A stretch of DNA of 20,000 bases from an uncultured virus (IMG/VR IMGVR_UViG_3300020463_003402) (IMGVR_UViG_3300020463_003402), one strand, 5' to 3'. Positions 258 to 18,552 are shown, counted from the stretch's first letter. Notes: generated by a model from the letters alone, not told the origin. Numbers and translations: made by a program.

Positions 258-884
258 ATGAGTAGCACAAATAAAAAGGTCGCTGAGTTCGAAGACTACC
301 CTACCCCGCGAGAACTTGTCGAAGCCTTATTCAAGTATATTGACTGGGATGCACTTAGGCACTTTGCGTCCTACGACAACCGGCCAGCTAGGTTCCTAGA
401 GCCGTGTCGTGGTCTGAAAAGAAATATCTACGACTTGGTACCACAGGACTTTGAAAAGTATTACTGCGAGATTCAGGAAGGTTTGAACTACCTAGAGACA
501 GACCTCAGCCCATTACACTTCGATATTATCGTAACTAATCCCCCATTCTCGCTTTTCGAAGAGTTTGTCACCAAAGCACGCAGTGAGGCCGCGGACCACG
601 GGTTTGTATGCTTCTTAATGCGTATTAACGCTTTAGGGACAAAGAAGCGTGAGAAGTTCTGGGCTGATAATCCGCCCGATAAAATTATTGTCGCGGTACC
701 TCGCCCTGACTTTAGTGGTGGGGGTGGTGATAGCTGCGAGTATGCGTGGTTCTGCTGGGACCCTACGGGGATCTTATTAGTAGACTCGAACGTTGGGCGC
801 CTTAACTGGGATAAGCCTAAAAAGCGTCGCAGCAAGAAGATAGACAACCGGAAATTGACTGATGAAAAAGAAAGCCAAGCGTAA
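258..884 (+). CDS. Orphan N6-adenine DNA methyltransferase (small phage type)
   Basis: Motif X DYPTP, motif I-like FLEPCRG, catalytic motif IV IVTNPPF, C-terminal EYAWFCW. Confidence 0.85.
   Translation: MSSTNKKVAEFEDYPTPRELVEALFKYIDWDALRHFASYDNRPARFLEPCRGLKRNIYDLVPQDFEKYYCEIQEGLNYLETDLSPLHFDIIVTNPPFSLFEEFVTKARSEAADHGFVCFLMRINALGTKKREKFWADNPPDKIIVAVPRPDFSGGGGDSCEYAWFCWDPTGILLVDSNVGRLNWDKPKKRRSKKIDNRKLTDEKESQA
850..864 (+). promoter_or_regulatory. Leader motif variant GGAAATTGACTGATG
   Basis: Ends in the ATG of the 862 ORF. Confidence 0.7.
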
Positions 885-1380
885 TAAGAAATACAACCCT
901 AGAAAGTACCTAGACCTTGTGGTTCGCGACAAAGTGAAGAACTTTGCTATCGCGATGGTGTTGGGTGAAACGAAGTATTGCACGCTTATTGACTATAAGA
1001 CGGGCGAGGAACTTAACGTAACGGTGGATGTGGCCGAGAGCGTTGAGAAGGGTTGCTTCAATTGGTACTACGAATGTTCTGTGGTTTGTCGTGACCAGAC
1101 AGGCAAAGAGTACGTCGTAAGTGAACCGCATTATTTTCAATCGCGATACCGCCAGTCCGATGAACGTTTAAATAAATACCTTAACGATGTTCATGTAGCC
1201 TTCAAAGAAAAACAAAATCCACTCCATATTATCACGATGGCCTGGGTCGCTATTCCCGTTATGGACGAAACGGAAAACCTCGACCTCGAGACCCTTGGCA
1301 AAATTTACGAAAACCTTGGTGCGTTCGATTATCTCTCAAAGTGGGAGAGCGACCAGCTTGAGAGGGAGAAAGTGGCGTGA
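862..1380 (+). CDS. Hypothetical phage protein (basic N-terminus KRNKKYNPRK)
   Basis: 172-aa ORF preceded by the leader motif; GTGA overlap with the next gene. Confidence 0.8.
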   Translation: MKKKAKRNKKYNPRKYLDLVVRDKVKNFAIAMVLGETKYCTLIDYKTGEELNVTVDVAESVEKGCFNWYYECSVVCRDQTGKEYVVSEPHYFQSRYRQSDERLNKYLNDVHVAFKEKQNPLHIITMAWVAIPVMDETENLDLETLGKIYENLGAFDYLSKWESDQLEREKVA

Positions 1381-2024
1381 GCAAATACAAATTTAACAAT
1401 GGTTTCATTTATTGCAACGGTTTTAGGATGCCAATGACTAGAGTTGTAGAAGCTTTGAACGAAATGGACGGGGAGCTAAGCAAGGACGAAGAGGGTTATA
1501 AAAACTTATTTGAGGCATTTGAGGATTGTCAAAAGGTTTTAGGGGATGCGAATAAGCGTTTGGAAAATCTCTCTCGAGTAAACAAAGAATACAAAGAGGT
1601 TCTAACCCCTATCTGGGATTACTGTCGGAAGAACGTAAAGGTTGAGCTAGGGAAAAGTATTACTGAGGCCTTAATTGAATCACATAAGGAGTTAGTGACT
1701 AAAGTTTGGAGCCTAGAACCTCGATGTAAATTGCTTGAGGAAGATGCCGAGGATACCGCTAAGTATGTAGAAATTCAGCGGGGAGAACTAGCAAAGGCTA
1801 ATGAACGTGTTGCGGGTTTGGAGAAAGAGATTTCCAGTAAAGAGCTATTGCATGTTGGCTTTACTAACGGAGACCAAGTTAAATACGCAAAAGTAGAGGA
1901 AGGTGCTTTTTACCCTGACACAGAAGGTGATTGCTACATACCTCTTTACATGCTTAAAAGTCACGAGCATAGAATTGAGACAACAAGCTTCGAACAACTA
2001 CGCAAGGAGCAAGAAAATGGGTAA
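1377..2024 (+). CDS. Coiled-coil hypothetical protein, Ead/Ea22-like mosaic type
   Basis: SD GAGGGAG, GTG start, heptad-rich AKANERVAGLEKE, C-terminal EQLRKEQ. Confidence 0.7.
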   Translation: MSKYKFNNGFIYCNGFRMPMTRVVEALNEMDGELSKDEEGYKNLFEAFEDCQKVLGDANKRLENLSRVNKEYKEVLTPIWDYCRKNVKVELGKSITEALIESHKELVTKVWSLEPRCKLLEEDAEDTAKYVEIQRGELAKANERVAGLEKEISSKELLHVGFTNGDQVKYAKVEEGAFYPDTEGDCYIPLYMLKSHEHRIETTSFEQLRKEQENG

Positions 2025-2445
2025 CGGTGTGACAGTAAGCAACACGGCATCAGTGATCCAGCAACAAATTATCGACTCGCTAACAGAAAAACTAAAAAAG
2101 TCTAATGAGCGCGTGAGGGAACTTGAAGAGCGCTGTTCTTCGCATGAAAAAGATATGCTTCGCCAATGTGTATTTATGGAAAAGACAGCCGAAAAGATAG
2201 AAAGACACAGAGAGTGGCAAGCAACGGCAAATGTATTGCGCAGACCAACACGCGAAGCTAAGCAAGCACTAAACAAATTCGCCCTAGAGCGGAAGATTGA
2301 GGCGCTTGATGATTTGCTTGAAGAAATACAATGCAGTGTTGTAGTACCAAAGCGCTATGAACAGCTTCAGGAGCCTTATTTAGAAGGGATAAAGCACTGT
2401 ATTCAGTTTATTGAGTGCCAGTTAGAACAACTACGCAAGGGGCAA
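1992..2445 (+). repeat. 21-bp direct repeat GAACAACTACGCAAGG(A/G)GCAA at 1992-2012 and 2425-2445
   Basis: 20/21 identical; each copy encodes EQLRK at a gene end and supplies the SD of the next gene. Confidence 0.9.
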
Positions 2446-2451
2446 CAGTGA
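2017..2451 (+). CDS. Coiled-coil hypothetical protein, sharing modules with 1377..2024
   Basis: ATG 2017 with SD AAGGAG 2004-2009 (preferred to track start 1903); KKSNERVRELEE and terminal EQLRKGQQ. Confidence 0.75.
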   Translation: MGNGVTVSNTASVIQQQIIDSLTEKLKKSNERVRELEERCSSHEKDMLRQCVFMEKTAEKIERHREWQATANVLRRPTREAKQALNKFALERKIEALDDLLEEIQCSVVVPKRYEQLQEPYLEGIKHCIQFIECQLEQLRKGQQ

Positions 2452-2648
2452 TGGATGATTTTTACAAAGACTTAGCGGAATTGCTAAAGAAACACAAAGT
2501 CGCAATAGTTTCAAAGCCTAATGATTTCAATGACTCTATTATAGGTTTTCAGTCTAATTACTGCGACAACTACTGGACCAACAGGCATCATGTTACTGGC
2601 TACGACGTAGAGTGTGAAATAAAGAAACAAGACCATGAAAAAACTTAA
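2451..2648 (+). CDS. Hypothetical protein
   Basis: TGATG coupling with the upstream stop, SD AAGGGG; MDDFYKDLAELLKKHKVAIV. Confidence 0.7.
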   Translation: MDDFYKDLAELLKKHKVAIVSKPNDFNDSIIGFQSNYCDNYWTNRHHVTGYDVECEIKKQDHEKT

Positions 2649-2841
2649 AGCTAAACAGCTAGGCCCGTGGTGTTCGTTCTGCGCTCCTAAGACGAACCGA
2701 GCGGTTTACCGAGAGAACGGCTTTGCCTATAAGTTCGCTTGTTCAGAGCATAAGAGCGCTTTAGTTGAACATGAGCGCCAGCAAGCAGAACGAGAGAAGC
2801 ATCTTACCGAAGCCGATTATCAAACTTGGATGAGGGTATAG
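2635..2841 (+). CDS. Small putative Zn-binding protein (CxxC...CxxH)
   Basis: WCSFC ... FACSEH. Confidence 0.7.
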   Translation: MKKLKAKQLGPWCSFCAPKTNRAVYRENGFAYKFACSEHKSALVEHERQQAEREKHLTEADYQTWMRV

Positions 2842-2843
2842 CA

Positions 2844-3038
2844 ATGTCATTAAGTGACAAGAGGCGACAAGCCAGGATTAACGCTCTCACTACGGCTGCG
2901 GCTTATTTAGATACTTTTGATTGGTCGAACTTTGATAAGGCCAATACCGACGAAGAGACTTTCGCTATCTTTCTAGAGGAATGTAACACCGTTTATAAAC
3001 GACTGGAAAACCAAGCCGAAAAGTTACGAAAGAAATAA
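2844..3038 (+). CDS. Hypothetical protein
   Basis: ATG 2844 after SD GAGGG; fits operon packing. Confidence 0.7.
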   Translation: MSLSDKRRQARINALTTAAAYLDTFDWSNFDKANTDEETFAIFLEECNTVYKRLENQAEKLRKK

Positions 3039-3052
3039 AGGATACGAGAACT

Positions 3053-3268
3053 GTGAAAAATATAATTTTAGAATTGTTATCTATGGTGTTACTGGTTTAT
3101 TTAACAGCGGGGGCCTTGATTATTCCACTTCAAGCTTTCACAGACTTAGGTTTTGAAAAGTCTTTAGCTTCAGGCATTGCACTAGGGGTTTTACTAGACA
3201 CTATAATACTTGTGTACATCACCATTCGTGATAAGAGAGCAAAGAAAAATGCAAATATCAGAACTTAA
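3053..3268 (+). CDS. Small membrane protein (two predicted TM helices)
   Basis: Two hydrophobic stretches and a basic C-tail; GTG start. Confidence 0.7.
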   Translation: MKNIILELLSMVLLVYLTAGALIIPLQAFTDLGFEKSLASGIALGVLLDTIILVYITIRDKRAKKNANIRT

Positions 3269-3458
3269 AATGATTCGTGTGGTGTGCCCTGATTGTGGGG
3301 TTGGCGGCGCGAGTAACTGGGCTTGCTTCTGTCACGTTTGTGAAGACCGTATTTTGATGCTTCCGGCCAAGGGCTCACACGGTACACAAAACTGGAACGA
3401 AATCGCGAGACTGTATGAAGGTAAGGTATCAACGTACAGTCCGCAACTACCAGCTTAA
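3249..3458 (+). CDS. Small Cys-rich putative Zn-finger protein
   Basis: ATG 3249; CPDC...CFCHVC. Confidence 0.65.
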   Translation: MQISELKMIRVVCPDCGVGGASNWACFCHVCEDRILMLPAKGSHGTQNWNEIARLYEGKVSTYSPQLPA

Positions 3459-3470
3459 CTAACTAAAAAC

Positions 3471-3485
3471 AGGAAATTGACGATG
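3471..3485 (+). promoter_or_regulatory. Leader motif AGGAAATTGACGATG (exact)
   Basis: Ends in the ATG of rdgC. Confidence 0.9.
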
Positions 3486-4370
3486 TATTTTAAAAACGCA
3501 AAGATTTATTCACTCACTCAAAATGTAGATTTGTCTAACCTAGTGCAAGCACTAGAGGCAATCCCCTTTCACCCTTGTGGTTCGCATAACCTAGCCTCAT
3601 TAGGTTTTGCGCCTATCATTGGTTCGTTACTGGCTCATGAGGTTCAAGGTATTTACACGGTTAAGCTTTTGAAAGAAAGCAAGATACTACCGGCCCGTGT
3701 TATCAACCGTGAGTTAGAAGAAAAAGTTAAGCTTATTGAAGCGGAAACGGGATCACCGGTTGGGAAAAAACAGCGACAAGACTTAAAAGAAGAAATAGTT
3801 ACGCACCTAACGCCGCGTGCGTTCACAGACCAAACCTCGACTATTGGCACAATCATCCCAGAGCATAAACTAGTGTTAGTGAATGCCTCTTCAGATGGTG
3901 AGGCTGAAATCTTCCTTGCGGTACTTCGCAAAGCGCTGGGTAGTTTACCGGTAGTACCATTCGCAAGACGGTCTCTCGCTTCAGACCTAACAAGCTGGAT
4001 TGTTAATGGCCACCCTGACAAATTTGAATTGCTCGAAGAGACTGAGCTTCAAGCCACAGATGAGACCAAAGCGGTTATCCGTGCAAAAAATCAAGAACTG
4101 GCCTCAGAAGAAATTCAACTGTGTTTAGACTCAGGCAAGCTCGTTCAGAAACTTGCTGTCAGTTATGACGACCAATTGACCGCTATGCTCTGTGAAGATG
4201 GTTCGGTTAAGCGTATCAAGTATTCAGACCGCTTGATTGAAGAAAGCGACGATATTCCTAAGGACCAACAGGAAGCGCGTCTCGATTCAGAAATCTATCT
4301 CGGGGCCAGTGCACTTCTATCGTTAGCGCTGGACCTTAAAGCGGCGTTTAATTTGAATAACGAAGAGTAA
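3483..4370 (+). CDS. rdgC: Recombination-associated protein RdgC
   Basis: MYFKNAKIY start, PCGS..SLGF, ESKILPARVI, LKEEIVTHLTPRAF, LRKALGSLPVVP, GKLVQKLAV, and typical ~295 aa length. True start is ATG 3483. Confidence 0.93.
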   Translation: MYFKNAKIYSLTQNVDLSNLVQALEAIPFHPCGSHNLASLGFAPIIGSLLAHEVQGIYTVKLLKESKILPARVINRELEEKVKLIEAETGSPVGKKQRQDLKEEIVTHLTPRAFTDQTSTIGTIIPEHKLVLVNASSDGEAEIFLAVLRKALGSLPVVPFARRSLASDLTSWIVNGHPDKFELLEETELQATDETKAVIRAKNQELASEEIQLCLDSGKLVQKLAVSYDDQLTAMLCEDGSVKRIKYSDRLIEESDDIPKDQQEARLDSEIYLGASALLSLALDLKAAFNLNNEE

Positions 4371-4384
4371 GGAGACTGACGATG
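4370..4384 (+). promoter_or_regulatory. Leader motif variant AGGAGACTGACGATG (13/15)
   Basis: Ends in ATG 4382. Confidence 0.75.
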
Positions 4385-4897
4385 CCATTTGTTCCACCAA
4401 TGCAAAAAGTTGATGAAGTTTTACCAGAAGCAAGTTCAGGTACACCAATGCCGGAAGTTAAAGGGTATAACCCTGATATAAAAGTAAAGACTGCTTTTAG
4501 TAAAGAAATCATCGAACAAACGGTGGCTTTCCCCAGACAAGACTCGATGTTTGATGAAATCTCTAAGAAAATCGTTTTCTTACAAGATGAGGGGATTAAC
4601 CAAGCGTTGTATAAGCTGGGCTATCTTAGCCCTAAACAGCTTTTACCTCTCAAAGAAGCATACTTCGCTGCGAAACATAACGAAGGGGGTGTTCAGCGCG
4701 TTATGGCTGAGTTAGGTAGGTTGTTTGAAGAACCCGCCCTACCTTCTGAAAAGCCCGAAGAAAGCGCACCTGAAGTAGTAGTTAGGGATAAGCCAAAAGG
4801 CCCTGAGAATGAGAAAATTAACCCAAAGATTAAAAAAATGTGTGGGTCATTCTCTCAGGGTGGTTATGTCGCTAATACGAAACCCGAGCAGAAGTAA
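4382..4897 (+). CDS. Hypothetical protein (Pro/Glu-rich termini)
   Basis: 171-aa ORF with strong SD; TAATG coupling to the polymerase. Confidence 0.8.
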   Translation: MPFVPPMQKVDEVLPEASSGTPMPEVKGYNPDIKVKTAFSKEIIEQTVAFPRQDSMFDEISKKIVFLQDEGINQALYKLGYLSPKQLLPLKEAYFAAKHNEGGVQRVMAELGRLFEEPALPSEKPEESAPEVVVRDKPKGPENEKINPKIKKMCGSFSQGGYVANTKPEQK

Positions 4898-7770
4898 TGT
4901 ACTCGCAAATTAACGAGAGAACTGGACTAGTCGAGCAATTGGTTGATGCTCGTAACGTCCATGTTCTCGAGGAAATCAAAGCCAAAATTAACCAGATGGG
5001 ACAGCCTGTGGGTTTCGATATCGAAACCCATGATGCTGACAGGCATGAAGGCCTGAACCAATTCATGAAGTTAAACAAAGATGATGAGGACTATCGTAAC
5101 CCTAAGAAGCTGGTCTTCGATATCAATAGAACAACGGTGACGGGCTTTTCTCTGTATATCCGAGGGGATACTACCGTTTATTATGCAAACGCCGCTCACG
5201 CTGATGCAGACAATCGGATACCGCCAGATATTATCCGTAGCTTTGTTCAATATATGGCAGACAATCCGCTAAAAATAATTCATAACTATCCCTTTGAGCG
5301 GACGATGTGCTTTAAAAGCTTAGGTATCGACTTAGGTTGGAACTACGTAGACACGCTTCAAATGGCGGTATCGGCCTATAATTCGGACCAGTATGATATT
5401 GAAGTATTCCGCCAGTCGGACCTACTAGGGATTAAGAAACTTATCCCTCAAATACGCCGTACCTTCGCGGGGGTTCAAGACTTTAGAAAGTTAGATACCG
5501 CTCAGCAAGAACTTATGCAAAAGGTATTGGCCAAAGAGTCGAAGGCCGACCATAGCTACAATGGGTATGTGAAGTCGATTAACTACGGTTACAACCTAAA
5601 GCAGATCACAGAACGTATCTTTGGCTACAAGCAGACGTCATTTAAAGATGCCCTTCAGGGTAAAGCACATATGGGATTGCTTACAGGTGAAGAAGTCCTT
5701 CACTACGGTGCGGACGATGCTTACTGGTGTGTACGTATTTACGACTGGCTATGTCAGTTCATGCAGAACACGAACCCTGCCGTGTTACGCACGTTCTTCG
5801 AGCAAGAAAACCCTATGTGTTACGTTTACTCGGATTGCTGGGTAAAAGGCTGGCGTGTTAACAAAGACGCGGTTCTTTCCCGCCGTGAAACGGAACGCGC
5901 TAACTATATCGAAGTGATTAAGGAATTAGGCGAACTACTCCAAACCTTAGAGTTCCCCGAGGCCCCTGCCCCGCGTCTCTATCAGAAACAGCCTAAATGG
6001 TATGTTGGTAAGGAAGGTATTTCGTACCAGCGCTATCGTGACAAGATATTGTTTCTGAAAGAGGGTTATGCGGAGTTTATACAAGCATACGACCAAGACA
6101 TGGCCGTTGAAGACTTCGATTTTGCGACACTAACCTCAGGGCCGGTATCAATACCCTGGATGGCAGAAGAAAAGTTCAAGCTCAAGAAGAAGGAACTCGA
6201 CTTACGCGGCAACTTCTCACATTACATGGTACAGCGCACGTTATTTCACGACTTACTGTATCTGCCTTTCGTTTATATCAAAGGCGATATCAAAACGGAT
6301 GCGGAGGCACGCGGTAAGCTGATTGAATATGCTGAACGTTTAGGCGCGGACCCTGCGTTTTGGATTAAGGAATGGAAACGCTACGGCCAGTTAACCGAGC
6401 TACCGGACGAAACGTTACAAGTTCTTGCTGAACAGTGTTGTGAACAGTACCCGACAGAGACAGCCAAGCGAGTAATAACAGCAATTAACAAGCTGGCTCA
6501 GATAGAACAGCGAATGAAGTTGTATATCACGAACTATTTGCTACTTACGGACCCTGATACAGACCGCATGTACCCGATTATTAGTTCGCGACTTAATACA
6601 CGCCGGATGGCCGCTGAAAACCCTAACCCAATGCAGCTAAGCAAACGTGGTGAGTCTACCTATATTCGGGGTTTCTTCTTGCCGCACCGAGACGACCATT
6701 TATTGGTTGCGGTGGATTGGTCTCAGGTAGAACTTGTGTTGATTGGGGAGTTAAGTAAAGACCCTAACTTCCAGAAAGCTTATGGCCAGATACCTTATGA
6801 TGACTTGCATTTAGGTGCGGCAACCTCAGCAATCAAGGTTTTCTATCCTGATTTCACTTCGGGGATGTTGGCCAGCGTGAAGAACCTCGAGGGCCAAGAA
6901 TTAGAAGCGTTCAAACTGCAGTACTCTCGAGTGCTTATTGACCCAGTTAAAAACGCGGCACTTGAACCTTATGAAGTCGCTAAATGGTGGCGTGGTTCAG
7001 CCGGTAAGCCTTCTAACTTCGGTTACTGGTACTCGGGCTCTCTAATGACGGTACAAGATAAGCTAGGTTGGACGTCGGATGAAATGTGGGCTGGTACCGA
7101 CAACTATCGCGATACCTTCCCTGTTGCTGAACAATGGAGAATAAATACCCAGCGCGAGATAGAAGTACAAGGTTACGTTGATATCTTTGATGGTCACAGA
7201 CGTTACAAATATGAAGGTACCAACGATTGGTTCTATCACTTCACGGCTAAGTGGGATGCGTATAACGATCCTGTGTTATCACAGTTCGGCGCTTTTATCG
7301 CTAAGAAGATTCAACGTAGAGCTGGTAACCAAGCGGTAAATGCTAAGATTCAAGGTGGTTGTGCAACGTTAGCCAAGCGCTCGATGCTCAAACTATGGCA
7401 CGAGATTAATGCCCCAGATACAAAATGGGACGCTGATATCGTAATGCCTATTCACGATGAATTAGTATTTAGTGTACGATGGGACCAAGCTGTTGATTTT
7501 GGTCAACGCATACTCGAAGTGATGTGTAGTCACCCTGACTTAGTGAGCTGGTTGAAACTAGATGGTACCGTTTCAGTTGGTCGCACGCTCGAGCCGTATC
7601 ACCCAACCAAGGCCCCGTTCGGTCAAGTCGAACTAGACGAAGCACCGGAGCTTGAAGGGTATATTCCAAAGGAACTGAAAGATACTAAGCTCACCACGGA
7701 ATACCGACATAATGTTGTTGCTTATCTTATGGGACACGAACCTGTAGTTCCTGTGGAGGTGGCCGCATGA
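4897..7770 (+). CDS. polA: Phage family A DNA polymerase with N-terminal 3'-5' exonuclease domain
   Basis: ExoI GFDIET, ExoII HNYPFE, ExoIII YGADDA. Motif A DWSQVEL (6715), motif B RGSAGKPSNFGYWY (6991-7032), NAKIQG, motif C IHDELV (7450). Confidence 0.93.
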   Translation: MYSQINERTGLVEQLVDARNVHVLEEIKAKINQMGQPVGFDIETHDADRHEGLNQFMKLNKDDEDYRNPKKLVFDINRTTVTGFSLYIRGDTTVYYANAAHADADNRIPPDIIRSFVQYMADNPLKIIHNYPFERTMCFKSLGIDLGWNYVDTLQMAVSAYNSDQYDIEVFRQSDLLGIKKLIPQIRRTFAGVQDFRKLDTAQQELMQKVLAKESKADHSYNGYVKSINYGYNLKQITERIFGYKQTSFKDALQGKAHMGLLTGEEVLHYGADDAYWCVRIYDWLCQFMQNTNPAVLRTFFEQENPMCYVYSDCWVKGWRVNKDAVLSRRETERANYIEVIKELGELLQTLEFPEAPAPRLYQKQPKWYVGKEGISYQRYRDKILFLKEGYAEFIQAYDQDMAVEDFDFATLTSGPVSIPWMAEEKFKLKKKELDLRGNFSHYMVQRTLFHDLLYLPFVYIKGDIKTDAEARGKLIEYAERLGADPAFWIKEWKRYGQLTELPDETLQVLAEQCCEQYPTETAKRVITAINKLAQIEQRMKLYITNYLLLTDPDTDRMYPIISSRLNTRRMAAENPNPMQLSKRGESTYIRGFFLPHRDDHLLVAVDWSQVELVLIGELSKDPNFQKAYGQIPYDDLHLGAATSAIKVFYPDFTSGMLASVKNLEGQELEAFKLQYSRVLIDPVKNAALEPYEVAKWWRGSAGKPSNFGYWYSGSLMTVQDKLGWTSDEMWAGTDNYRDTFPVAEQWRINTQREIEVQGYVDIFDGHRRYKYEGTNDWFYHFTAKWDAYNDPVLSQFGAFIAKKIQRRAGNQAVNAKIQGGCATLAKRSMLKLWHEINAPDTKWDADIVMPIHDELVFSVRWDQAVDFGQRILEVMCSHPDLVSWLKLDGTVSVGRTLEPYHPTKAPFGQVELDEAPELEGYIPKELKDTKLTTEYRHNVVAYLMGHEPVVPVEVAA

Positions 7771-7970
7771 GTTCACATATTCCAGGGGTGATAGTACAGC
7801 TTACTCCTGAGGCTGAATTTTGTTGTGGTTCTTTGTGTGATAAGTCTCGGCTTATCACACAAATAAGTAGCCAGATAGAACGCGCCTTATTACTTGAACA
7901 TGCGTTGCGGGAACTAAACCCGCAACATCCTTTACTGAGAGACACACATGGCCCCAGCAACCGGAAATAA
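7767..7970 (+). CDS. Hypothetical protein
   Basis: ATGA overlap with the polA stop, SD GGAGGT. Confidence 0.7.
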   Translation: MSSHIPGVIVQLTPEAEFCCGSLCDKSRLITQISSQIERALLLEHALRELNPQHPLLRDTHGPSNRK

Positions 7971-8634: not shown

Positions 8635-8840
8635 ATACCGAACTAGAGTTTTATGTTTGGGGTTTATGGATAGCGCTGTTAATTACAGCGCTCTATATTA
8701 TCCCCCGCTATATACGAGAGCGAATTGCTAAGTCTAAGAAAATGGCTCTAGGTTCAGAACCTTATGAACCATTTCAAGAACCAAAGCAGGAGAACGACCT
8801 AACAACCATAGAGAAAAACGATTCAGGACGACTAATCTGA
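8631..8840 (+). CDS. Small single-pass membrane protein
   Basis: TTG start overlapping the upstream TGA, SD GGAGAG; hydrophobic FYVWGLWIALLITALYII followed by basic residues. Confidence 0.6.
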   Translation: MNTELEFYVWGLWIALLITALYIIPRYIRERIAKSKKMALGSEPYEPFQEPKQENDLTTIEKNDSGRLI

Positions 8841-8917
8841 TTAATAAAAATCCAGTTAGTTTGCCAGCAACTCACTTGATTACTTTTTATAATGCTGGTC
8901 TCATACTTAAAAATTAA

Positions 8918-8932
8918 AGGAAATTGACGATG
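8918..8932 (+). promoter_or_regulatory. Leader motif AGGAAATTGACGATG (exact)
   Basis: Ends in ATG 8930; TATAAT at 8888-8893 in the AT-rich upstream gap. Confidence 0.9.
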
Positions 8933-9538: not shown

Positions 9539-9544
9539 TGAAGT

Positions 9545-9565
9545 CGGCCCTCACTTAGAGGGCCG
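9545..9565 (+). terminator. Intergenic hairpin (weak U tract)
   Basis: CGGCCCTC-ACTTA-GAGGGCCG, perfect 8-bp stem after the stop codon. Confidence 0.45.
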
Positions 9566-9574
9566 CTACAATTT

Positions 9575-9591
9575 GGATTAAATTGACGATG
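9575..9591 (+). promoter_or_regulatory. Leader motif variant GGATTAAATTGACGATG
   Basis: 12-nt core AAATTGACGATG ends in ATG 9589. Confidence 0.8.
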
Positions 9592-13092: not shown

Positions 13093-13113
13093 CGCTGTAT
13101 TATTAAGCATAAT
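13085..13113 (+). promoter_or_regulatory. Putative sigma70 promoter
   Basis: TTGCAT(13085-90)-N17-CATAAT(13108-13); overlapped by the inverted repeat GTATTAT-N5-ATAATAC. Confidence 0.45.
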
Positions 13114-13138
13114 ACCTATTAATTAATATAATAATTAT

Positions 13139-13162
13139 AAAGGCTCCACTAGGAGCCTTTTT
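13139..13162 (+). terminator. Intrinsic terminator
   Basis: AAAGGCTCC-ACTA-GGAGCCTTT with a run of 5 T. Confidence 0.7.
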
Positions 13163-13185
13163 AAATATGAATTGACGAGTTGAGC

Positions 13186-13692
13186 ATGGATAACGCCACT
13201 TTTGGAATTGAAGGTGTAAGCCTTAAATATAATTCTAAAAAATTACAATTTGAAAAACCTATCCATTGCTGGCTTTGGGTGGTCACCTATTGTCGTAAAA
13301 ATAAATTCCGAATCTTAACTAACAAACCGTTAAGTAGGGAGATTTATGAGCAACTTCGTGCGGTTATTTCTCCTAAGAAAGTCAGCTCAAGAGAACTATA
13401 CGATGCGATAGGCTTTCACGTTAATTCTATAAAATACCTCAATCGTATTCGTACTGGTGCCCAGCGCTTTAACCTCTGGGGAAAGCCTGACGGTAGAGTA
13501 ACCGAATCCGAAGCCGACCATGCTCGTAAGAGAATGGTTGAACTACATTCTATGTACTTACGCTCTCGACGTAAGAACAAGAAGCAAGGGATTATCATAA
13601 ATCAGAAAGTGGGACGCGGCACACGCCAGTCAACATCAGATGATAAAGGTGATAAACCTAAAAGAGTATTAACTCTAAATAAAACAAAATAA
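13186..13692 (+). CDS. proQ: FinO/ProQ-domain RNA-binding protein
   Basis: KPLSREIYEQL...SSRELYDAIGFHVNSIKYL...GAQRFNLWGKPDGRVTESEADHAR aligns by eye to the ProQ core PLKIGIFQDL...SKTQLRSALRLYTSSWRYL...[24 protein letters not shown]. Basic C-tail. Start is ATG 13186 or TTG 13180. Confidence 0.85.
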   Translation: MDNATFGIEGVSLKYNSKKLQFEKPIHCWLWVVTYCRKNKFRILTNKPLSREIYEQLRAVISPKKVSSRELYDAIGFHVNSIKYLNRIRTGAQRFNLWGKPDGRVTESEADHARKRMVELHSMYLRSRRKNKKQGIIINQKVGRGTRQSTSDDKGDKPKRVLTLNKTK

Positions 13693-13703
13693 GTTTTATA
13701 CAA

Positions 13704-13724
13704 TTAGGAAATTGACGATGCAAA
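13704..13724 (+). repeat. Extended leader repeat TTAGGAAATTGACGATGCAAA
   Basis: Identical 21-mer also at 14501-14521 and 15017-15037. Confidence 0.92.
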
Positions 13725-14125
13725 ACACTGGTAAACCCTCCGAAGATATCTTCGAAGAGAATATGAAAGCGCTGGGCGCTCATGTATATCGCTTCGAAGA
13801 TCATGCTGATGTAAACAAGTCTCGCGTTCGCAAACGTATCGTTTCATCAAAACCCTCAGACTATCTTGTTACCGAAAAAGGTTTAACGGCCTACGCGGAA
13901 GTAAAAAGTATTGCTGAAAGTTCCCGCTTTGATTTCTCTCGAATTGAGAAACGTCAATGGCGCGAAGCAACCAAGGTAACCAAAGCTGGGGGCCTCTACT
14001 ATTTCTACCTCCATTTCATAAGTATTGATGGCTGGTTTAAAGTACCAGCATCCCTAATTCTAAGCTGGCCTAAGAAGTCTATGCGTTTTGAAGAACTCAC
14101 GCAGTTTCAATTTACGTGGAGATAA
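13718..14125 (+). CDS. PD-(D/E)xK nuclease, RecU-like Holliday junction resolvase
   Basis: GKPSE N-helix, KPSDYLV, YAEVKS, Q..EA......GG. Confidence 0.75.
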   Translation: MQNTGKPSEDIFEENMKALGAHVYRFEDHADVNKSRVRKRIVSSKPSDYLVTEKGLTAYAEVKSIAESSRFDFSRIEKRQWREATKVTKAGGLYYFYLHFISIDGWFKVPASLILSWPKKSMRFEELTQFQFTWR

Positions 14126-14129
14126 ACCT

Positions 14130-14504
14130 ATGCTTGAGGTTACTTGTGGATGGGCCTTACACGCTGAAACTGAGATTAATACTTTAATTTGGAGGAATGC
14201 TAGGCTGGCAAAGCTGGTTTTGTTGTGGCGAAGAGGACATATAACAGACCAGCATTTTATACCCCGAATTGTTCAACCTTGGGAACCAGATGAAGAATCC
14301 GAAGAGTTTGAGGACTTCAATGAACTTAGGAACCCTAATGCGGCTTACCGAGTTTTATGCTTTGCTGTGCTGGGACACGCTGTTAGTGTCTATCCAGATA
14401 TTAAAAGATTTGTACTCGAATACTGGCCATACTTTAGCCCAGATTTGAACTGGAAAATTAGAGTTAACTTTACTGAGGGCCAAGTCCCCTCAATTATTAT
14501 TTAG
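14130..14504 (+). CDS. Hypothetical protein (Trp-rich)
   Basis: ATG 14130 after GGAGA; its TAG lies inside the next leader motif. Confidence 0.65.
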   Translation: MLEVTCGWALHAETEINTLIWRNARLAKLVLLWRRGHITDQHFIPRIVQPWEPDEESEEFEDFNELRNPNAAYRVLCFAVLGHAVSVYPDIKRFVLEYWPYFSPDLNWKIRVNFTEGQVPSIII

Positions 14505-14521
14505 GAAATTGACGATGCAAA
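14497..14521 (+). repeat. 25-bp leader repeat TTATTTAGGAAATTGACGATGCAAA, copy 1
   Basis: Identical to 15013-15037. Confidence 0.93.
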
Positions 14522-15003
14522 AAACAGTTTTAGACCCTTGTTCAGGGTCTCGTATGTGGTGGTTGGATAAAGCTCACCACTCCGCAGTATATGGGGATAT
14601 TAGAAACGAGACCATAACTGTTACGGATAGAACGCATAAATCGGATGGGACTCGAACTATAAAAATTGAACCCGACACTTTAATGGATTTTAGAGAACTT
14701 CCTTTTGCGGATAACACTTTCAACATTGTAGCTTTCGACCCACCTCATTTAGAGAGAGCAGGTCCTAAAAGTTGGCTTGCCGCAAAATATGGTAAATTAG
14801 GTAATGATTGGAGAGAAGATTTGAACAAAGGATTCAAGGAGTGCTTAAGAGTTTTGAAACCTGGGGGAACGCTTGTTTTCAAATGGAATGAAACTCAAAT
14901 AAAACTCAAAGAGATACTTCCTCTATGTCCAGTTAAACCACTATTTGGGCAAGTTTCAGGCCGTTCTGGTTTAACTCACTTTTTAGTTTTCATGAAACCA
15001 TAG
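14515..15003 (+). CDS. Small class I SAM-dependent methyltransferase (DPPH catalytic motif, probably an amino/adenine DNA MTase)
   Basis: VLDPCSGSRM, DFRELPFADNTF, AFDPPHL, LRVLKPGGTLVFKW. Confidence 0.85.
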   Translation: MQKTVLDPCSGSRMWWLDKAHHSAVYGDIRNETITVTDRTHKSDGTRTIKIEPDTLMDFRELPFADNTFNIVAFDPPHLERAGPKSWLAAKYGKLGNDWREDLNKGFKECLRVLKPGGTLVFKWNETQIKLKEILPLCPVKPLFGQVSGRSGLTHFLVFMKP

Positions 15004-15012
15004 CATAAACTT

Positions 15013-15037
15013 TTATTTAGGAAATTGACGATGCAAA
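15013..15037 (+). repeat. 25-bp leader repeat, copy 2
   Basis: Identical to 14497-14521; contains the ATG of the SbcD-like gene. Confidence 0.93.
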
Positions 15038-16056
15038 TGCAACCAATCGAATCGCTTAACGATTTAGTTAAACTCCCCTCTTTTGTACAGACGTTAGGTG
15101 ACCCGCACCTAGCACGTAAATTTAATACCGGCGTACCAACACACCGCAAAGGTGAGCGCGAAGAAATGGTGAAAGATACCTTTGCGGGTATTGTTAATTC
15201 GCCAGGGTATAAGCTTCACGTTTGTATGGGAGACTTGTTTGATAAGTTTCGCGTTCCTGAAGAAGATATTTTATTTGCGGCCGACGTTTATCGTCTCGCG
15301 GCCAGTAATTATCCTGACCGTCAGTTCGTGATAATTCGCGGCAACCATGACGCTTCGAGAGATACCCAGTTCAAAAGCTCGTTTGATGTATTTACACAGC
15401 TTGTGGCTCACGTTCCGAATATTCATGTTGTTTCAGAAAGCGCACTCAAACTAACCATTGATAAAGAGCACTTTGTTTTCTACCCGTGGCACCCTTTTAA
15501 AACTGCGAAAGAAATTGCGGCAGAGATTAAGCCACCGGTAGGTTTCTTCGCCTTTGGTCATTGGGACATTCTTGCTTTTAGTGAAGATAGCTCAGCGACA
15601 GATAACTTGATCCCGTTTGAAGAAATGCAAACAGCACTTGCGGTTATCACTGGCCACTATCATACCCCCCGTATTTTTATGGAAGGTGATACGCCAGTCT
15701 GGGTTACCGGCTCTATGCAACCCTACTCGCATGCCGAGGACCCAAACAACCAGCTCTACATAACGCTCTCGCTTCAAGAAGCAACCACGGCCTTAGAAGC
15801 TGACCCTGATAAGTTCAAAAACATGAACCTTCGAATCACGCTTCTACCAACGGAGGCCCCGATTGCTGAAGTGGATTGTTTGAGCCTGACTTTCAAACGT
15901 GTGTCGGAAAATAAAGACGACGAACTGGAAGTTAATCTCGATAGCTTCGACTTAGAAGGTATCTTCAAATCGACAATGGCGGAACACAACGTTTCAACTG
16001 AAACTACGAATCAACTTTGGGGCCAGTTTATGGACCTAAGCGCGGAGGCTGAATAA
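15031..16056 (+). CDS. sbcD: SbcD/Mre11-like metallophosphoesterase nuclease
   Basis: GDPH, GDLFD, GNHD, GHW, GHYH, TGS; coupled (TAATG) to an SMC-like ATPase. Confidence 0.88.
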   Translation: MQMQPIESLNDLVKLPSFVQTLGDPHLARKFNTGVPTHRKGEREEMVKDTFAGIVNSPGYKLHVCMGDLFDKFRVPEEDILFAADVYRLAASNYPDRQFVIIRGNHDASRDTQFKSSFDVFTQLVAHVPNIHVVSESALKLTIDKEHFVFYPWHPFKTAKEIAAEIKPPVGFFAFGHWDILAFSEDSSATDNLIPFEEMQTALAVITGHYHTPRIFMEGDTPVWVTGSMQPYSHAEDPNNQLYITLSLQEATTALEADPDKFKNMNLRITLLPTEAPIAEVDCLSLTFKRVSENKDDELEVNLDSFDLEGIFKSTMAEHNVSTETTNQLWGQFMDLSAEAE

Positions 16057-18080
16057 TGCTTTCTTCAATTAAATATGACTTAACGTTCTCGAACGGCAAA
16101 ACAATTAAAAACGAGTTGGAACTAAATGCAGGTTCAACCTTGATCACCGGCGCGAACGGCAAAGGTAAATCACTTAACTTTGAAATGGTAGGCTTTGCCC
16201 TCTTTGGTAACAAAGCACTTCGCGGCATTGCTGGCGATTACAAGCGAATGAAGGTAGAGGTTGTTATTGCTATCAATGGCGAGACGTACACTATCAGCCG
16301 TACCAAATCTAAGTCTGAAGTCTTTCATAAAAATGAGCCTATCGTAAGTGGTACCAAGCCTGTAAATCAGTGGGTAGTTAGAACCCTGGGTTATGGTTTT
16401 GATGTGTTCCGAATTGCTCACTGGTGCGCTCAAGGCGATATACAAGCGCTTGCGGATATGCGCCCAACTGAACGTAAACAAATGATTGATTCGGTAGCTG
16501 GCCTTACGCAGATGGATGGGCTTGCTAATAATATGGCCGGAGAGATTAGAGAACTGCGTGCGGTTATCGACACTCACAAAAAGAACTTGGTAGAACCCGT
16601 GGCGCCGACTCAACCTCAAACTCCTAAGGCCGATATAGAGAATGCGTTATCGACGTATAAAACAAGTCTTGAGAACTGGTTAACGGCAAAAGCGGTCTCG
16701 GTACCAGCGGAGCCAACAAAACCTGTACAACCCGAAGAGCCGATTTACCCAGAAAAACCACAGCTTTTATCGCCTACGATGAAAGCCCCTGAGTTCCCGA
16801 CGTTAACTAACGGTATACCAAGTACAGTATCCCAGTTAACCACCGTGGAACTGAACCTTCAGAATAACCTTGATAAAGCGGTGAAGGTTGAAGCTGAGTT
16901 CTTGCGTCTAGAAGCGCAATGCAAGCCTTGTGAACCTAACGCCGAGTGGCCAGAAATAGGAGAGCTTTATGAAGCTTGGGCCGAACACGAGCGTTATACT
17001 CGTATCCAAGAGCTCAAGGCGTCACACACGATTGAGTGTCCTAAATGTAACCATCACTTCCATTTATCAGCAGAGATTGCAGAACTGGAAAAATTACGTT
17101 TAAGGGAAAAGGCCCCGAGCTTAACCATTAAGCAATGGAATGATATCGCTGCCCAAATTGAAATAAACAAGAGGCATGACACGGTATTAGAAGAGCTGCA
17201 GAGCTTAAATATTGATGATTTGAGAACCGCGCTTCATGAAGTTCGCACGGCTAAGTCTGCAATACTGCAGTTTGAGAAAGAGAACAAGGACTATAAGAGC
17301 CATGTATCTAATATTTCTCAGATGAACGACCAGCAAATTAAAAACTGGGAAGGTACCTGTAAGCGGATTAAAGACCAGTTTGATAACCAGATGCGGATGT
17401 ATGATAGTCAAGCAACGCATTTTGAAGGTCTGAAGCAAGCGTATGGTGAAGCTAAAGCGAATTATGACCAAGCGCAAGAAACGCTTAACAGTATTACACA
17501 GCAATTCCCTGAGAATACTGAAGCGACCTTACGTAATGTCATTAGCCAGCTAGAGTCGGCCCGTCAAGAATGGGCGAACTACGAGCACCTTTCGGGGCAG
17601 TACGAACAGGCTTTGGCCACCTATAATAAAAGTATTGAGGGTGTAGCTGCCGAGGAAGAGCGTTTATCGGAACTGTCTCGGGCCCGTGAAGCACTGAAAG
17701 TGGTGAAAGCTAAGGTTCAGAGTCACCTACTACCTTCACTTAATAAAGTGGCCTCGATGCTTATGAGTGAAATGACGGGTGGCGAATTCCAGTCCGTTGA
17801 AGTGGGACAGGATTTCGAGGTTGTTGTTGATGGCCAGCCGCTAAGAACGCTATCGGGTTCGGGTAAAGACCTTGCTAATTTAACCCTACGTATCGGTTTA
17901 GGTCGTATTTTGACTCACCGTGTATTACCTTTAATGATGTTAGACGAGATTGATAGCGCGATGGACGACACACGAGCCAGCTTCACATGGCAATGTATCC
18001 AACGTATCACACCTCATATCGGACAGGTTTTACAGGCATCACATAAAGAACTAGATGCCGAGAACCGCGTAGCTGTTTAA
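16056..18080 (+). CDS. sbcC: SbcC/Rad50-like SMC ATPase
   Basis: Walker A GANGKGKS, Q-loop AQG, central Zn hook CPKC (17037-17048), signature LSGSG, Walker B/D-loop MMLDEIDSAMD, H-loop SH. Confidence 0.9.
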   Translation: MLSSIKYDLTFSNGKTIKNELELNAGSTLITGANGKGKSLNFEMVGFALFGNKALRGIAGDYKRMKVEVVIAINGETYTISRTKSKSEVFHKNEPIVSGTKPVNQWVVRTLGYGFDVFRIAHWCAQGDIQALADMRPTERKQMIDSVAGLTQMDGLANNMAGEIRELRAVIDTHKKNLVEPVAPTQPQTPKADIENALSTYKTSLENWLTAKAVSVPAEPTKPVQPEEPIYPEKPQLLSPTMKAPEFPTLTNGIPSTVSQLTTVELNLQNNLDKAVKVEAEFLRLEAQCKPCEPNAEWPEIGELYEAWAEHERYTRIQELKASHTIECPKCNHHFHLSAEIAELEKLRLREKAPSLTIKQWNDIAAQIEINKRHDTVLEELQSLNIDDLRTALHEVRTAKSAILQFEKENKDYKSHVSNISQMNDQQIKNWEGTCKRIKDQFDNQMRMYDSQATHFEGLKQAYGEAKANYDQAQETLNSITQQFPENTEATLRNVISQLESARQEWANYEHLSGQYEQALATYNKSIEGVAAEEERLSELSRAREALKVVKAKVQSHLLPSLNKVASMLMSEMTGGEFQSVEVGQDFEVVVDGQPLRTLSGSGKDLANLTLRIGLGRILTHRVLPLMMLDEIDSAMDDTRASFTWQCIQRITPHIGQVLQASHKELDAENRVAV

Positions 18081-18087
18081 CTTTTAT

Positions 18088-18114
18088 AGGCTGGTGAAAG
18101 CCAGCCTTTGATTT
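18088..18114 (+). terminator. Probable intrinsic terminator
   Basis: AGGCTGG-TGAAAG-CCAGCCT followed by TTGATTT. Confidence 0.55.
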
Positions 18115-18127
18115 GGAAATTGATTTT

Positions 18128-18349
18128 ATGATAGAGAAACCACGCTTTAAAGTCCCTTACTGTAAATACTGCTATGAGTATGCGACGGTAACTCAGCAAG
18201 CACCAATCCGAGGGCCTTTCGAAAAGATAACTAAAAACGACGATGCTGTTGTTTTTGAGAGCGTTTGTTTTGACCACGTTAGAAACGCTCACGATGCTTT
18301 AACCTTCAGATTCGATAACCTCGCATGTTCTAGGGATTTGTGGTTATGA
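18128..18349 (+). CDS. Small CxxC...CxxH putative Zn-binding protein, paralog 1
   Basis: MIEKPRFKVPYCKYCYEYATV...VCFDH; leader variant GGAAATTGATTTTATG 18115-18130. Confidence 0.75.
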   Translation: MIEKPRFKVPYCKYCYEYATVTQQAPIRGPFEKITKNDDAVVFESVCFDHVRNAHDALTFRFDNLACSRDLWL

Positions 18350-18519
18350 AAGATAAACCTCACTTCAAAGTCCGCTACTGTAAATACTGTAATGAGTATG
18401 CGACGGTGAAACAACCCGCTCCGCCAGATTACGTAACGGATGGGCCACTTGCAATGCAGCAAACGAGAGCATGGGAACTTGTGTGTAAAGACCACGAACG
18501 GAACCCACTCCCTTTGTAA
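18346..18519 (+). CDS. Small CxxC...CxxH putative Zn-binding protein, paralog 2 (57 aa, absent from the ORF track)
   Basis: ATGA overlap; MKDKPHFKVRYCKYCNEYATVKQPAPPDYVTDGPLAMQQTRAWELVCKDHERNPLPL*. Confidence 0.8.
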   Translation: MKDKPHFKVRYCKYCNEYATVKQPAPPDYVTDGPLAMQQTRAWELVCKDHERNPLPL

Positions 18520-18536
18520 GCTAACTTTTAAAATTT

Positions 18537-18552
18537 GGAAATTGACGATATG
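18537..18552 (+). promoter_or_regulatory. Leader motif variant GGAAATTGACGATATG
   Basis: Ends in ATG 18550. Confidence 0.8.

Follow-up and report, generated by a model that had tools for sequence, protein, structure and literature searches.

A lineage-specific translation-start tag and a predicted complementary small RNA in a group of temperate marine phages

Temperate phages are known to produce antisense immunity RNAs, among them the C4 RNAs of P1 and P7, which differ in RNA specificity, and the CI RNA of P4. Phage T4 acts on its messages through proteins, with RegB cutting within GGAG and RegA binding the AU-rich start regions of many early mRNAs. Closer to the subject of this report are the start-associated sequence (SAS) and extended SAS (ESAS) of Cluster K mycobacteriophages, which passages of Pope et al. 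(2011, PMC3203893) describe as 13-bp asymmetric sequences that lie 3-7 bp before mostly ATG starts, are conserved beyond the part that pairs with 16S rRNA, and are absent from the host; the reader was left by those authors as either an RNA or a protein. FinO-family proteins provide another parallel in that parts of PMC9977716 present FinP, Inc, and RocR as terminator-bearing small RNAs, each dedicated to one such protein and pairing at a ribosome-binding site, where they repress translation, with RocR acting in trans on several mRNAs that have a common target sequence. P22 sar and lambda OOP are among the phage antisense RNAs named in a 2025 review of phage small RNAs (PMC12197685). Here we describe a short tag at translation starts in a 20,000-nucleotide stretch of the uncultured virus IMGVR_UViG_3300020463_003402 (hereafter the window, of which positions 258 to 18,552 are shown), together with a predicted small RNA of related phages that is complementary to the tag. 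Sequence comparison makes it reasonably probable, in our judgment, that the element is a private ribosome-binding tag that is read, and probably repressed, by this antisense RNA, perhaps with the aid of a phage ProQ/FinO protein.

A first-pass annotation of the window had proposed that a conserved 15-nt translation-start leader marks 11 genes. The 15-mer AGGAAATTGACGATG does occur exactly at 3471, 8918, 13706, 14503, and 15019, where no copies are expected (an exact match arose in 0 of 200 dinucleotide-preserving shuffles), and eight matches are found at up to three mismatches, whereas the shuffles averaged 0.71. The 11 listed sites are all gene starts on the + strand, with the ATG of a long open reading frame (ORF) at the end of the site or no more than 3 nt beyond it; the sole exception to this spacing is the site at 13169, which is 7 nt ahead of its ATG. 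Residue 1 of RdgC, whose gene follows the copy at 3471, aligns with position 1 of its Pfam profile (PF04381). The ATG beside the motif is therefore the true rdgC start, which places the motif within the mRNA leader. The six variant sites are sound as well, with the copy originally put at 9575 better placed at 9577. The element is conserved as proposed, but its fixed core is the 13-nt sequence GGARATTGACGAT, followed by 0-3 nt and then by an ATG that falls outside the core.

Among whole genomes, G001 (83,406 bp, rated complete) comes closest to the window, with ~94% identity across its 63.5-83.1 kb region. Whole-genome figures given herein come from relatives G001-G010 and from Pseudoalteromonas phage KB12-38, and gene calls are crude except for KB12-38, for which the deposited coding sequences (CDS) were used. 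Across 55 aligned ATTGAYGA sites in G001, GGARATTGACGAT carries 0.8-2.2 bits per position and the AT-rich part upstream carries 0.1-0.3 bits; the spacing from core to ATG in this genome is 0, 2, or 3 nt. This genome has 46 exact copies of ATTGACGA on its two strands, whereas ~2.5 are expected from length alone, and 38 of the 46 are situated just ahead of a predicted start. Thus, the count of 11 genes holds for the window but is an undercount as a phage total. At up to two mismatches, a 14-mer gives 37 matches in G001 versus none for the reversed control, and the strand of the matches tracks gene direction. Exact 13-mer copies number 34 in G002, 33 in G003, 29 in G004, 17 in G005, and 20 in G006 (controls, 0). 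The closest whole genomes carry 29-37 core copies each, always on the coding strand, and the range for the ~80-kb phage genomes overall is 17-37.

The distribution of the tag among genes follows the space available to it. Of 106 genes in the G001 set, 39 are tagged, and 35 of these have an upstream gap of more than 10 nt (median 55 nt). Because tagged genes mostly have free space upstream, the tag looks like the default start signal in unconstrained sequence. Of the 67 untagged genes, 36 run into their upstream neighbor or are separated from it by no more than 10 nt, and so the earlier suggestion that the remaining genes are translationally coupled is roughly borne out. ATG is the start codon of 37 of the 39 tagged genes versus 50 of the 67 untagged genes, and four tags lie inside the final part of the gene before them. 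Tags also precede the genes for portal, capsid, tape-measure, and tail proteins and therefore occur in both the structural and the non-structural arm. Neither the cI-like operon nor int is tagged.

The sequence does not appear to be a property of the probable host. The left end of G001 (1-127) is the 3′ part of a transfer-messenger RNA (tmRNA) gene, which is the sole Rfam match at gathering threshold, and a 43-mer from this fragment is found exactly in 13 genome records, 11 of which are named Alteromonas. Because the end of G001 is a tmRNA 3′ part that matches Alteromonas genomes, we take the host to be Alteromonas and the attachment site to be ssrA. Five Alteromonas genomes that have the phage's tmRNA flank contain no exact copies of the tag, and at up to one mismatch they give 12-19 matches compared with 11-24 for the reversed control. 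The possibility that the motif is equally common at host gene starts is thus contradicted in these five genomes. Among 301 genomes of one family (centered on a Colwellia genome), the 13-mer occurs exactly in 92, never more than three times per genome. A 19-mer scan of genome contigs returned 13 single matches that are apparently due to chance, and the Colwellia genome has one copy of the 13-mer. A 14-mer scan of viral contigs gave, among the matches listed, only single chance ones.

Related phages carry their own versions of the tag. We compared 85 loci around PolA homologues, in addition to nine whole genomes and KB12-38; the distant relatives were covered as ±10 kb around PolA, a span that stops short of the tail region. 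Within the inner clade (PolA identity of 51% or more), some version of the tag ranks first among the over-represented 10-mers of each genome, and the versions are as follows:

G001-G005: AATTGACGAT, 17-35 copies, top 10-mer
G006 and G007: ATTGACGATG(A), 26-28 copies, top 10-mer
G009: GATTGACGAT, 20 copies, top 10-mer
G010: GGATTAACAA, 29 copies, top 10-mer
L170 (a PolA locus): GGAATCGACGATG

In KB12-38, GGATTGA is present no more than 25 nt upstream of 29 of the 83 deposited CDS and occurs 37 times overall. The conserved block of G007 is shifted into ATGAG. At the same genes, related phages use versions of their own that include GGATTGACGAT, GGATTAACAA, and GGAAATCGACGAT, so the tag is indeed conserved at orthologous genes, in a lineage-specific form. 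At least 10 genes keep the local version at protein identities of 30-57%, including those for ligase, SbcD, the MazG-like protein, a 5′-3′ exonuclease, the major capsid protein, and several tail proteins. For example, the MazG-like orthologues in G006, G007, G009, and G010 each have the tag of their own lineage, as do the SbcD orthologues in G007, G009, and G010. Because many sites have been altered alike within a lineage, a lineage-specific reader is indicated. No start-associated repeat was detected at the 72 more distant PolA loci. A single-sequence PolA query of genome contigs gave no match, and an alignment query retrieved only distant alpha- and beta-proteobacterial prophages, none of which is tagged.

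A candidate for this reader emerged among the tail genes. G001 has a single tag copy that opposes local transcription, on the + strand at 16851-16863 within a leftward tail-gene block, and it is followed by three codons only, with no gene. At the loci checked, the strand opposite the predicted small RNA has no ORF longer than nine codons after the tag copy. On the minus strand, G001 has a predicted sigma-70-like promoter at 16925-16897 (TTGACA-17-TAGTAT, 10 of 12 matches) and a predicted terminator at 16844-16818 (12-bp stem plus T-run), and the sequence between them includes AUCGUCAAUUUCC, which complements the tag exactly. The RNA predicted from this unit, ~81 nt long (minus strand, ~16890-16810), folds into a 5′ hairpin, 17 unpaired nucleotides that contain the seed, and the terminator, at -25.1 kcal/mol (z = -4.5; 0 of 200 shuffles equal). 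The unit is located just upstream of an orthologous 162-aa tail gene in G001-G007, G009, G010, and KB12-38. Thus, a search for the reverse complement of the motif in intergenic loci, which the first-pass annotation had recommended, finds a conserved small-RNA-like unit in every whole relative genome examined. The seed changes along with the tag in seven lineages, as illustrated by these sequences:

G005 seed: ATCGTCGATTTCC, complement of its own tag
G007 seed: CTCATCGTCAATTT, complement of its own tag
G009 seed: CATATCGTCAATCC, complement of its own tag
KB12-38 seed: CATATTGTCAATCC, complement of its own tag
G010 seed: ATGTTTGTTAATCCTAAT, complement of its own tag

Other features of the unit are also retained. 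By script, a promoter-like site is found 29-36 nt upstream of the seed at seven of 10 loci, compared with 3.6% of random 110-nt G001 windows; the G006 site scores 9 of 12 by eye and was ranked second by the script. A strong hairpin followed by a T-run is present at all 10 loci, and an alignment of six lineages reveals compensatory changes in five of eight terminator pairs while the seed is unpaired. The 5′ hairpin is retained with unrelated sequences in four of six folds. No small-RNA family, C4 included, was matched at the Rfam gathering threshold in the window or in the 20-kb G001 stretch that holds the locus.

If the unit reads the tag, then each RNA should match the starts of its own lineage best. 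A start window was scored when 12 or more consecutive nucleotides were complementary to a given RNA, a level that random windows reach at 2-7 per 1000. In G001, 26 of 98 start windows score with the cognate RNA, four with the G009 RNA, and none with the G010 RNA. The corresponding cognate counts are 13 of 97 for G009 (0-2 with other RNAs) and 23 of 135 for G010 (0 with other RNAs). RNAs of lineages that have a different tag version score 0-5, those with nearly the same tag (G006 and G007) come close to the cognate value, and the cognate RNA is the best or near-best match in each lineage. An earlier matrix of duplex energies, computed for the entire 5′ part of the RNA with a threshold of -14 kcal/mol, was set aside as too permissive, with 6-64 random windows passing compared with 85-135 start windows.

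The variation among targets also follows the small-RNA base opposite. Where the RNA has A (G001), the targets are T 36 times and C never, and no C site exists in G001-G004 and G006 combined. Where it has G (G005), the targets are T 19 times and C 10 times. Indeed, G005 mixes two versions of the tag, ATTGACGA 18 times and ATCGACGA at least 10 times, with the structural module using the C version, and the G in its RNA is able to pair with both. Likewise, a small-RNA C (G009) faces G 20 times and A never, and a U (KB12-38) faces A 20 times and G seven times. In all lineages, the minor variants common among the targets have G in place of A where the RNA has U, and T in place of C where it has G. 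Departures from the consensus at starts divide into G-U-compatible changes and mismatches at 11:3 in G001, 26:10 in G005, and 28:6 in G010.

For the window, duplex energies were computed with the seed region of the RNA of G002, taken as the closest relative. At 10 of the 11 sites the predicted duplex has an energy of -17.0 to -24.8 kcal/mol, compared with -2.9 to -14.0 kcal/mol at 15 untagged window starts and a first percentile of -15.0 kcal/mol among 1996 background windows. The predicted complementarity of 13-18 nt covers the region from the Shine-Dalgarno sequence to the AUG. The sites and the repeats that contain two of them are listed here, all on the + strand:

850..864, +: variant tag GGAAATTGACTGATG (one T inserted); ATG 862 opens a 172-aa gene; predicted duplex -18.3 kcal/mol
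3471..3485, +: exact tag AGGAAATTGACGATG; ATG 3483 opens rdgC; 13 nt complementary to the seed, -20.6 kcal/mol
4370..4384, +: variant tag AGGAGACTGACGATG; ATG 4382 opens a 171-aa gene; -17.0 kcal/mol with just 7 nt of contiguous complementarity
8918..8932, +: exact tag; ATG 8930 opens the MazG-like pyrophosphohydrolase gene; duplex -23.4 kcal/mol
9577..9591, +: variant tag ATTAAATTGACGATG, with TTTGG just before it; ATG 9589 opens the 1167-aa primase-helicase/origin-binding gene; 11 nt, -19.7 kcal/mol
13169..13188, +: degenerate tag GAATTGACGAGTTGAGCATG ahead of the ProQ/FinO gene; 9 nt, -11.9 kcal/mol, weakest of the 11
13706..13720, +: exact tag; ATG 13718 opens the RecU-like resolvase gene; duplex -20.7 kcal/mol
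14497..14521, +: left copy of the 25-nt direct repeat TTATTTAGGAAATTGACGATGCAAA, containing the exact methyltransferase-gene tag (14503-14517)
15013..15037, +: right copy of the 25-nt direct repeat TTATTTAGGAAATTGACGATGCAAA, containing the exact sbcD tag (15019-15033)
18115..18130, +: variant tag GGAAATTGATTTTATG; ATG 18128 opens a 73-aa gene; 16 nt including the upstream ATTT, -23.2 kcal/mol
18537..18552, +: tag GGAAATTGACGATATG; ATG 18550 opens the excisionase gene; 18 nt (the longest in the window), -24.8 kcal/mol

The gene behind the weakest pairing in the window is itself of interest as a possible participant:

13186..13692, +: ProQ/FinO-family RNA-chaperone gene (PF04352, E 7.2e-13, 48.9 bits versus a cut-off of 27)

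The closest solved relative of its product is the E. coli ProQ chain 5nb9_A (E 2e-6). By tblastn, the PolA loci with a ProQ/FinO homologue are precisely the tagged ones (13 of 85), and a ProQ gene (annotated PFAM-ProQ) is also present in KB12-38. Given these observations, the phage ProQ/FinO protein is plausibly a helper of the small RNA.

Taken together, we envisage the tag as a weak Shine-Dalgarno sequence (GGA or GGAG) plus a fixed spacer, set 0-3 nt before the ATG, that the phage would place at nearly every gene with free intergenic space upstream. We propose that the spacer is invariant because its complementarity to one phage small RNA must hold. That RNA would start from a sigma-70-type promoter of its own and end at an intrinsic terminator, with a 5′ hairpin and a seed that is mostly single-stranded in between. 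Because the predicted duplex spans GGA through AUG, a block to 30S binding, and thus translation repression, would be the simplest outcome, and such repression would reach 30-45 phage mRNAs at once, including those for xis, replication, and structural genes. The ProQ/FinO protein might stabilize the RNA or speed its pairing, as FinO does with FinP and RocC with RocR. We infer that the small RNA is made, that translation is repressed, and that ProQ takes part, and we favor lysogeny as the time of action. The lack of tags at the cI-like operon and int is compatible with the silencing of lytic and excision functions in a lysogen, a fit that does not amount to proof. Thus, the initial suggestion of a trans-acting reader composed of a phage small RNA plus ProQ/FinO is strengthened by the conserved, covarying complementary unit, and its ProQ part extends to co-occurrence in one clade. 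A RegA- or CsrA-like protein reader, which had been offered as another option, is not favored because a scan of 25 window and 72 G001 proteins turned up no such family.

Several observations weigh against this antisense proposal. About eight of the 46 G001 copies are off the start, being either ORF-less or positioned 14-20 nt before a start with a second, canonical Shine-Dalgarno sequence in between (e.g., ...GACGATAATTAGGAGCCACATG); at the latter, pairing would miss the start codon. The targets lack temporal logic in that early, late, and xis genes are all tagged. The ~80-nt unit lies outside the window, and its occurrence in the window phage is taken from the relatives. The loci of G005 and G009 have no promoter by the scan criteria, part of the G010 seed is hidden in the minimum-energy fold, and the fold of G009 is equivocal. 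Departures from the consensus in G006 (9:20) and G009 (4:16) are mostly true mismatches, chiefly at an edge position, and the A-to-G variant also strengthens the Shine-Dalgarno sequence, which makes it ambiguous as wobble evidence. The RNA-library data consist of assembled contigs, which show no strand, ends, or level. Moreover, because the 13 ProQ-bearing loci form one clade, their co-occurrence with the tag counts only once. Finally, the covariation of seed and target would be trivial if the locus were a mere copy of the motif on the opposite strand. The opposed predicted promoter and terminator, the absence of a conserved ORF, and the fixed position in seven lineages argue otherwise, as do the cognate-match pattern and the RNA-pairing rules that appear to govern target variation.

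A variation on the same theme, possible in our opinion and yet rather unlikely, is that the tag constitutes an RNA immunity code, whereby a constitutive antisense RNA and a FinO-like protein silence tagged mRNAs that leak from, or enter, a lysogen. The xis, replication, and virion genes would be silenced, and the untagged cI-like operon and int would stay translatable. The tag/seed pairs of TTGACGA, TCGACGA, GGATTGACG, and GGATTAACAA would then represent heteroimmunity groups that have diverged through competition between related prophages, and ORF-less sense copies such as that at G001 37168 could be sponges that lift the block on induction.

The surroundings of this sense copy are unusual. 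In G001 37160-37320 (+), the tag is followed ~115 nt on by a hairpin with a T-run and then by iteron-like GGTTCTCGGGTCGC repeats (37300-37400), just past the first primase gene. This copy could mark a non-coding RNA, a small-RNA sponge, or an origin region, and comparable ORF-less copies are found in G009 (23505) and KB12-38 (58740). Separately, the N-terminal coding part of the cI-like helix-turn-helix (HTH) gene (G001 56233-56247, minus) holds GAAAATTGACGAT, which shares 12 of 13 nt with the tag, is kept in G002-G004, and lies ~240 nt from the divergent tagged ligase gene; it might reflect chance or a further site of interaction. The divergent region near the cI-like gene yielded no promoter-like site.

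At many sites, the tag is part of a wider cassette composed of a GC-rich hairpin, then (A)ATTAACTTTTAAAATT, and then the tag. Nine G001 hairpin copies (38.8-54 kb) share GGGGGGAAYRTTCYCCCCC-like sequence, and in the window such hairpins stand just upstream of tags at 9545-9565, 13140-13162, 14472-14490, and 18085-18105. These hairpins resemble weak terminators or 3′ structures of the RNA-stability/ProQ type. The AT-rich tract that follows is AATTAACTTTTAAAATT, or AATTAAACTAAAA in G009 and KB12-38, and has stops in all three frames. The AT-rich tract, as TTAACTTTT, is similar to the T7 gene-10 epsilon enhancer.

These features bear on an alternative that we consider unlikely, in which the tag is an optimized standard ribosome-binding cassette for the host ribosome or a factor such as S1, copied by recombination, with the "small RNA" being a functionless copy on the opposite strand, either decayed or incidental. 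The tag does occupy a ribosome-binding-site position with its GGA or GGAG, it is used wherever intergenic space is free, its copies recombine, and the shared unit of hairpin, AT-rich tract, and tag suggests duplication. However, host-type genomes are without the sequence, and the 13 nt are fixed at orthologues that are 30-57% identical and yet differ between lineages, which drift and copying would not give. Nor does such a cassette account for an ORF-less opposite-strand copy at one position in seven lineages, flanked by an opposed promoter and terminator, or for T/C and A/G mixes that occur only where the partner base permits a G-U pair.

We regard as quite improbable a purely local function, wherein the unit is a cis leader of the downstream tail gene and the anti-tag pairs with that gene's own tag ~100 nt on to gate translation or the terminator, with the other tags read in some other manner. 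The arrangement is suggestive, given that anti-tag, terminator, and tail-gene tag are on one strand within ~125 nt in all lineages. However, the strong terminator separates the anti-tag from the tail-gene tag, and most transcripts should therefore end as a short RNA; furthermore, the identical sequence at the other 30-45 genes would go unexplained. A cis-leader role for the tail gene itself is possible.

The last alternative holds that the motif acts at the level of DNA, serving as a promoter or transcription-start element specific to the phage or else as a recombination linker that favors the exchange of modules. A TAnAAT-like hexamer often precedes the tag's GG by 2-3 nt, and terminator-like hairpins stand ahead of many copies. 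RNA-library contigs begin at window 9591 (one run) and 13184 (two runs), each a few nucleotides from the 3′ end of a tag. All of these runs come from one sample, and because contigs cannot show true RNA ends, the match is a weak hint. Loose RNA-contig ends at the tag are due to multi-mapping of the repeat, and parts without coverage prove nothing. With regard to recombination, a 491-nt methyltransferase cassette (window 14521-15013) is bracketed in the window and in G001 by the 25-nt repeat, which comprises the tag and its flanks, and it is absent from G002, G003, and G004, where one copy of the repeat is left. A 240-nt segment is likewise bounded by repeats of the hairpin/AT-rich cassette upstream of the tag. 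Moreover, 15 of 63 homology-block boundaries are within 30 nt of a tag, compared with 2.6 expected at random positions, but 24 would be expected for random gene starts. Because boundaries are no more common at tagged starts than at gene starts in general, recombination looks like a by-product. Thus, the first-pass suggestion of a shared recombination site is correct in that copies do recombine, as with the methyltransferase cassette, and fails in that boundaries are not enriched over gene starts. A DNA signal is very improbable in view of this count and of four other points, in that no RNA polymerase or sigma factor was found among the 108 (PHROGs) and the 72 G001 plus 25 window (Pfam) proteins scanned, the information resides in GGAAATTGACGAT (0.8-2.2 bits) rather than in the AT-rich stretch (0.1-0.3 bits), a true ATG abuts the core and so requires that it be transcribed, and the variants are strand-specific and G-U-compatible. 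Extended pairing with the 16S 3′ end, sigma-54, sigma-28, and extracytoplasmic function (ECF) promoters, each judged by eye against a consensus, and an RNA hairpin with GGA in its loop, also judged by eye, either did not fit or were not conserved in G009 and G010.

The phage that carries these elements appears to be a temperate siphovirus. PHROGs and Pfam identify tape-measure, J-like tail protein, capsid, portal, and terminase genes in G001, in addition to a large replication/recombination arm, several methyltransferases, a cI-like HTH gene, xis, and int. In the window, they identify RdgC (PF04381), a MazG-like protein (PRA-PH), a RecU-like resolvase, a methyltransferase, SbcD, SbcC, ProQ/FinO (PF04352), an origin-binding/primase-helicase, and an integrase. 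The gene names assigned at the outset are thereby confirmed, with xis resting solely on the PHROGs excisionase match of the G001 homologue, given that a Pfam scan of the window product returned no match. PolA places the phage in a wide group of ~75-85-kb phages in which the KB12-38 protein is 51% identical and those of Achromobacter phage JWF, Caulobacter phage Seuss, Xylophilus phage Lumi, and Acinetobacter phages are 33-39% identical. DndB-like and PAPS-reductase-like genes adjoin several methyltransferase genes at G001 48.4-53 kb and KB12-38 46-55 kb, a neighborhood that suggests a DNA-modification module of this phage group. In G004, a second integrative island adjoins the prophage past int. 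From its ORF list alone, this island includes a tyrosine integrase, a protein of UvrD-like helicase size, two large unknowns, a serine recombinase-like protein, and another integrase-like protein. The flank was consequently dropped as a guide to the host, which was provided by the tmRNA fragment.

If the antisense proposal is true, then a single phage small RNA would gate the translation of ~40% of phage genes, possibly with a phage FinO-family chaperone. Self-regulation on this scale is absent from the phage small RNAs in the parts of the 2025 review that catalog them, which list none that targets a shared start tag across a phage's own genes and make no mention of ProQ (PMC12197685). Nature has already supplied compensatory variants, as seed A versus G is accompanied by targets with T versus T/C, and seed C versus U by G versus A/G. 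Furthermore, the cultured phage KB12-38 has the tag, the small-RNA unit, and ProQ, which makes the proposal testable at the bench. The tag could also serve for calling gene starts and for grouping these phages.

The comparison with known systems places the tag nearest to SAS, which has been known since 2011 without an identified reader; the same kind of signal is now found in unrelated marine phages along with a testable candidate reader. As portrayed in the passages of Pope et al. noted above, SAS resembles the tag in being 13 nt long, in having many copies with one orientation relative to genes near mostly ATG starts, and in overlapping the Shine-Dalgarno position at genes with larger gaps while being absent from the host. 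Both often have a second upstream element with inverted-repeat character. However, the consensus sequences are unrelated (GGGATAGGAGCCC for SAS and GGARATTGACGAT for the tag), copies number 11-19 for SAS and 29-46 for the tag, and SAS is limited to the non-structural arm whereas the tag also occurs in the structural arm. One belongs to actinobacteriophages and the other to an 80-kb siphophage of Gram-negative Alteromonas from the PolA group of JWF and Seuss. In addition, the tag has only a weak Shine-Dalgarno sequence, and it has a candidate reader in the complementary, covarying small RNA.

Antisense immunity RNAs are similar in that a prophage small RNA pairs with repeated or ribosome-binding-site targets and holds lytic functions down, but they act on one or two transcripts rather than on ~40% of genes. 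The T4 proteins RegA and RegB likewise recognize a phage-wide set of mRNAs at the translation start; in contrast, they are protein readers, and the targets described here are not restricted to early genes. The systems of FinO/FinP-traJ, FopA/Inc-repZ, and RocC/RocR, as covered in parts of PMC9977716, share with this phage a FinO/ProQ-domain protein of a mobile element and one short RNA that has a terminator hairpin, a 3′ U-tail, and complementarity to a ribosome-binding site, the RNA features here being predicted. They differ in being encoded by plasmids or chromosomes rather than by a phage, and in having 1-4 targets compared with the 30-45 predicted here. Moreover, the target in this phage is a standard tag across the element's own genes, and its link between protein and RNA is one that we infer. 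The tag thus behaves like SAS, but it is not a member of SAS by descent.

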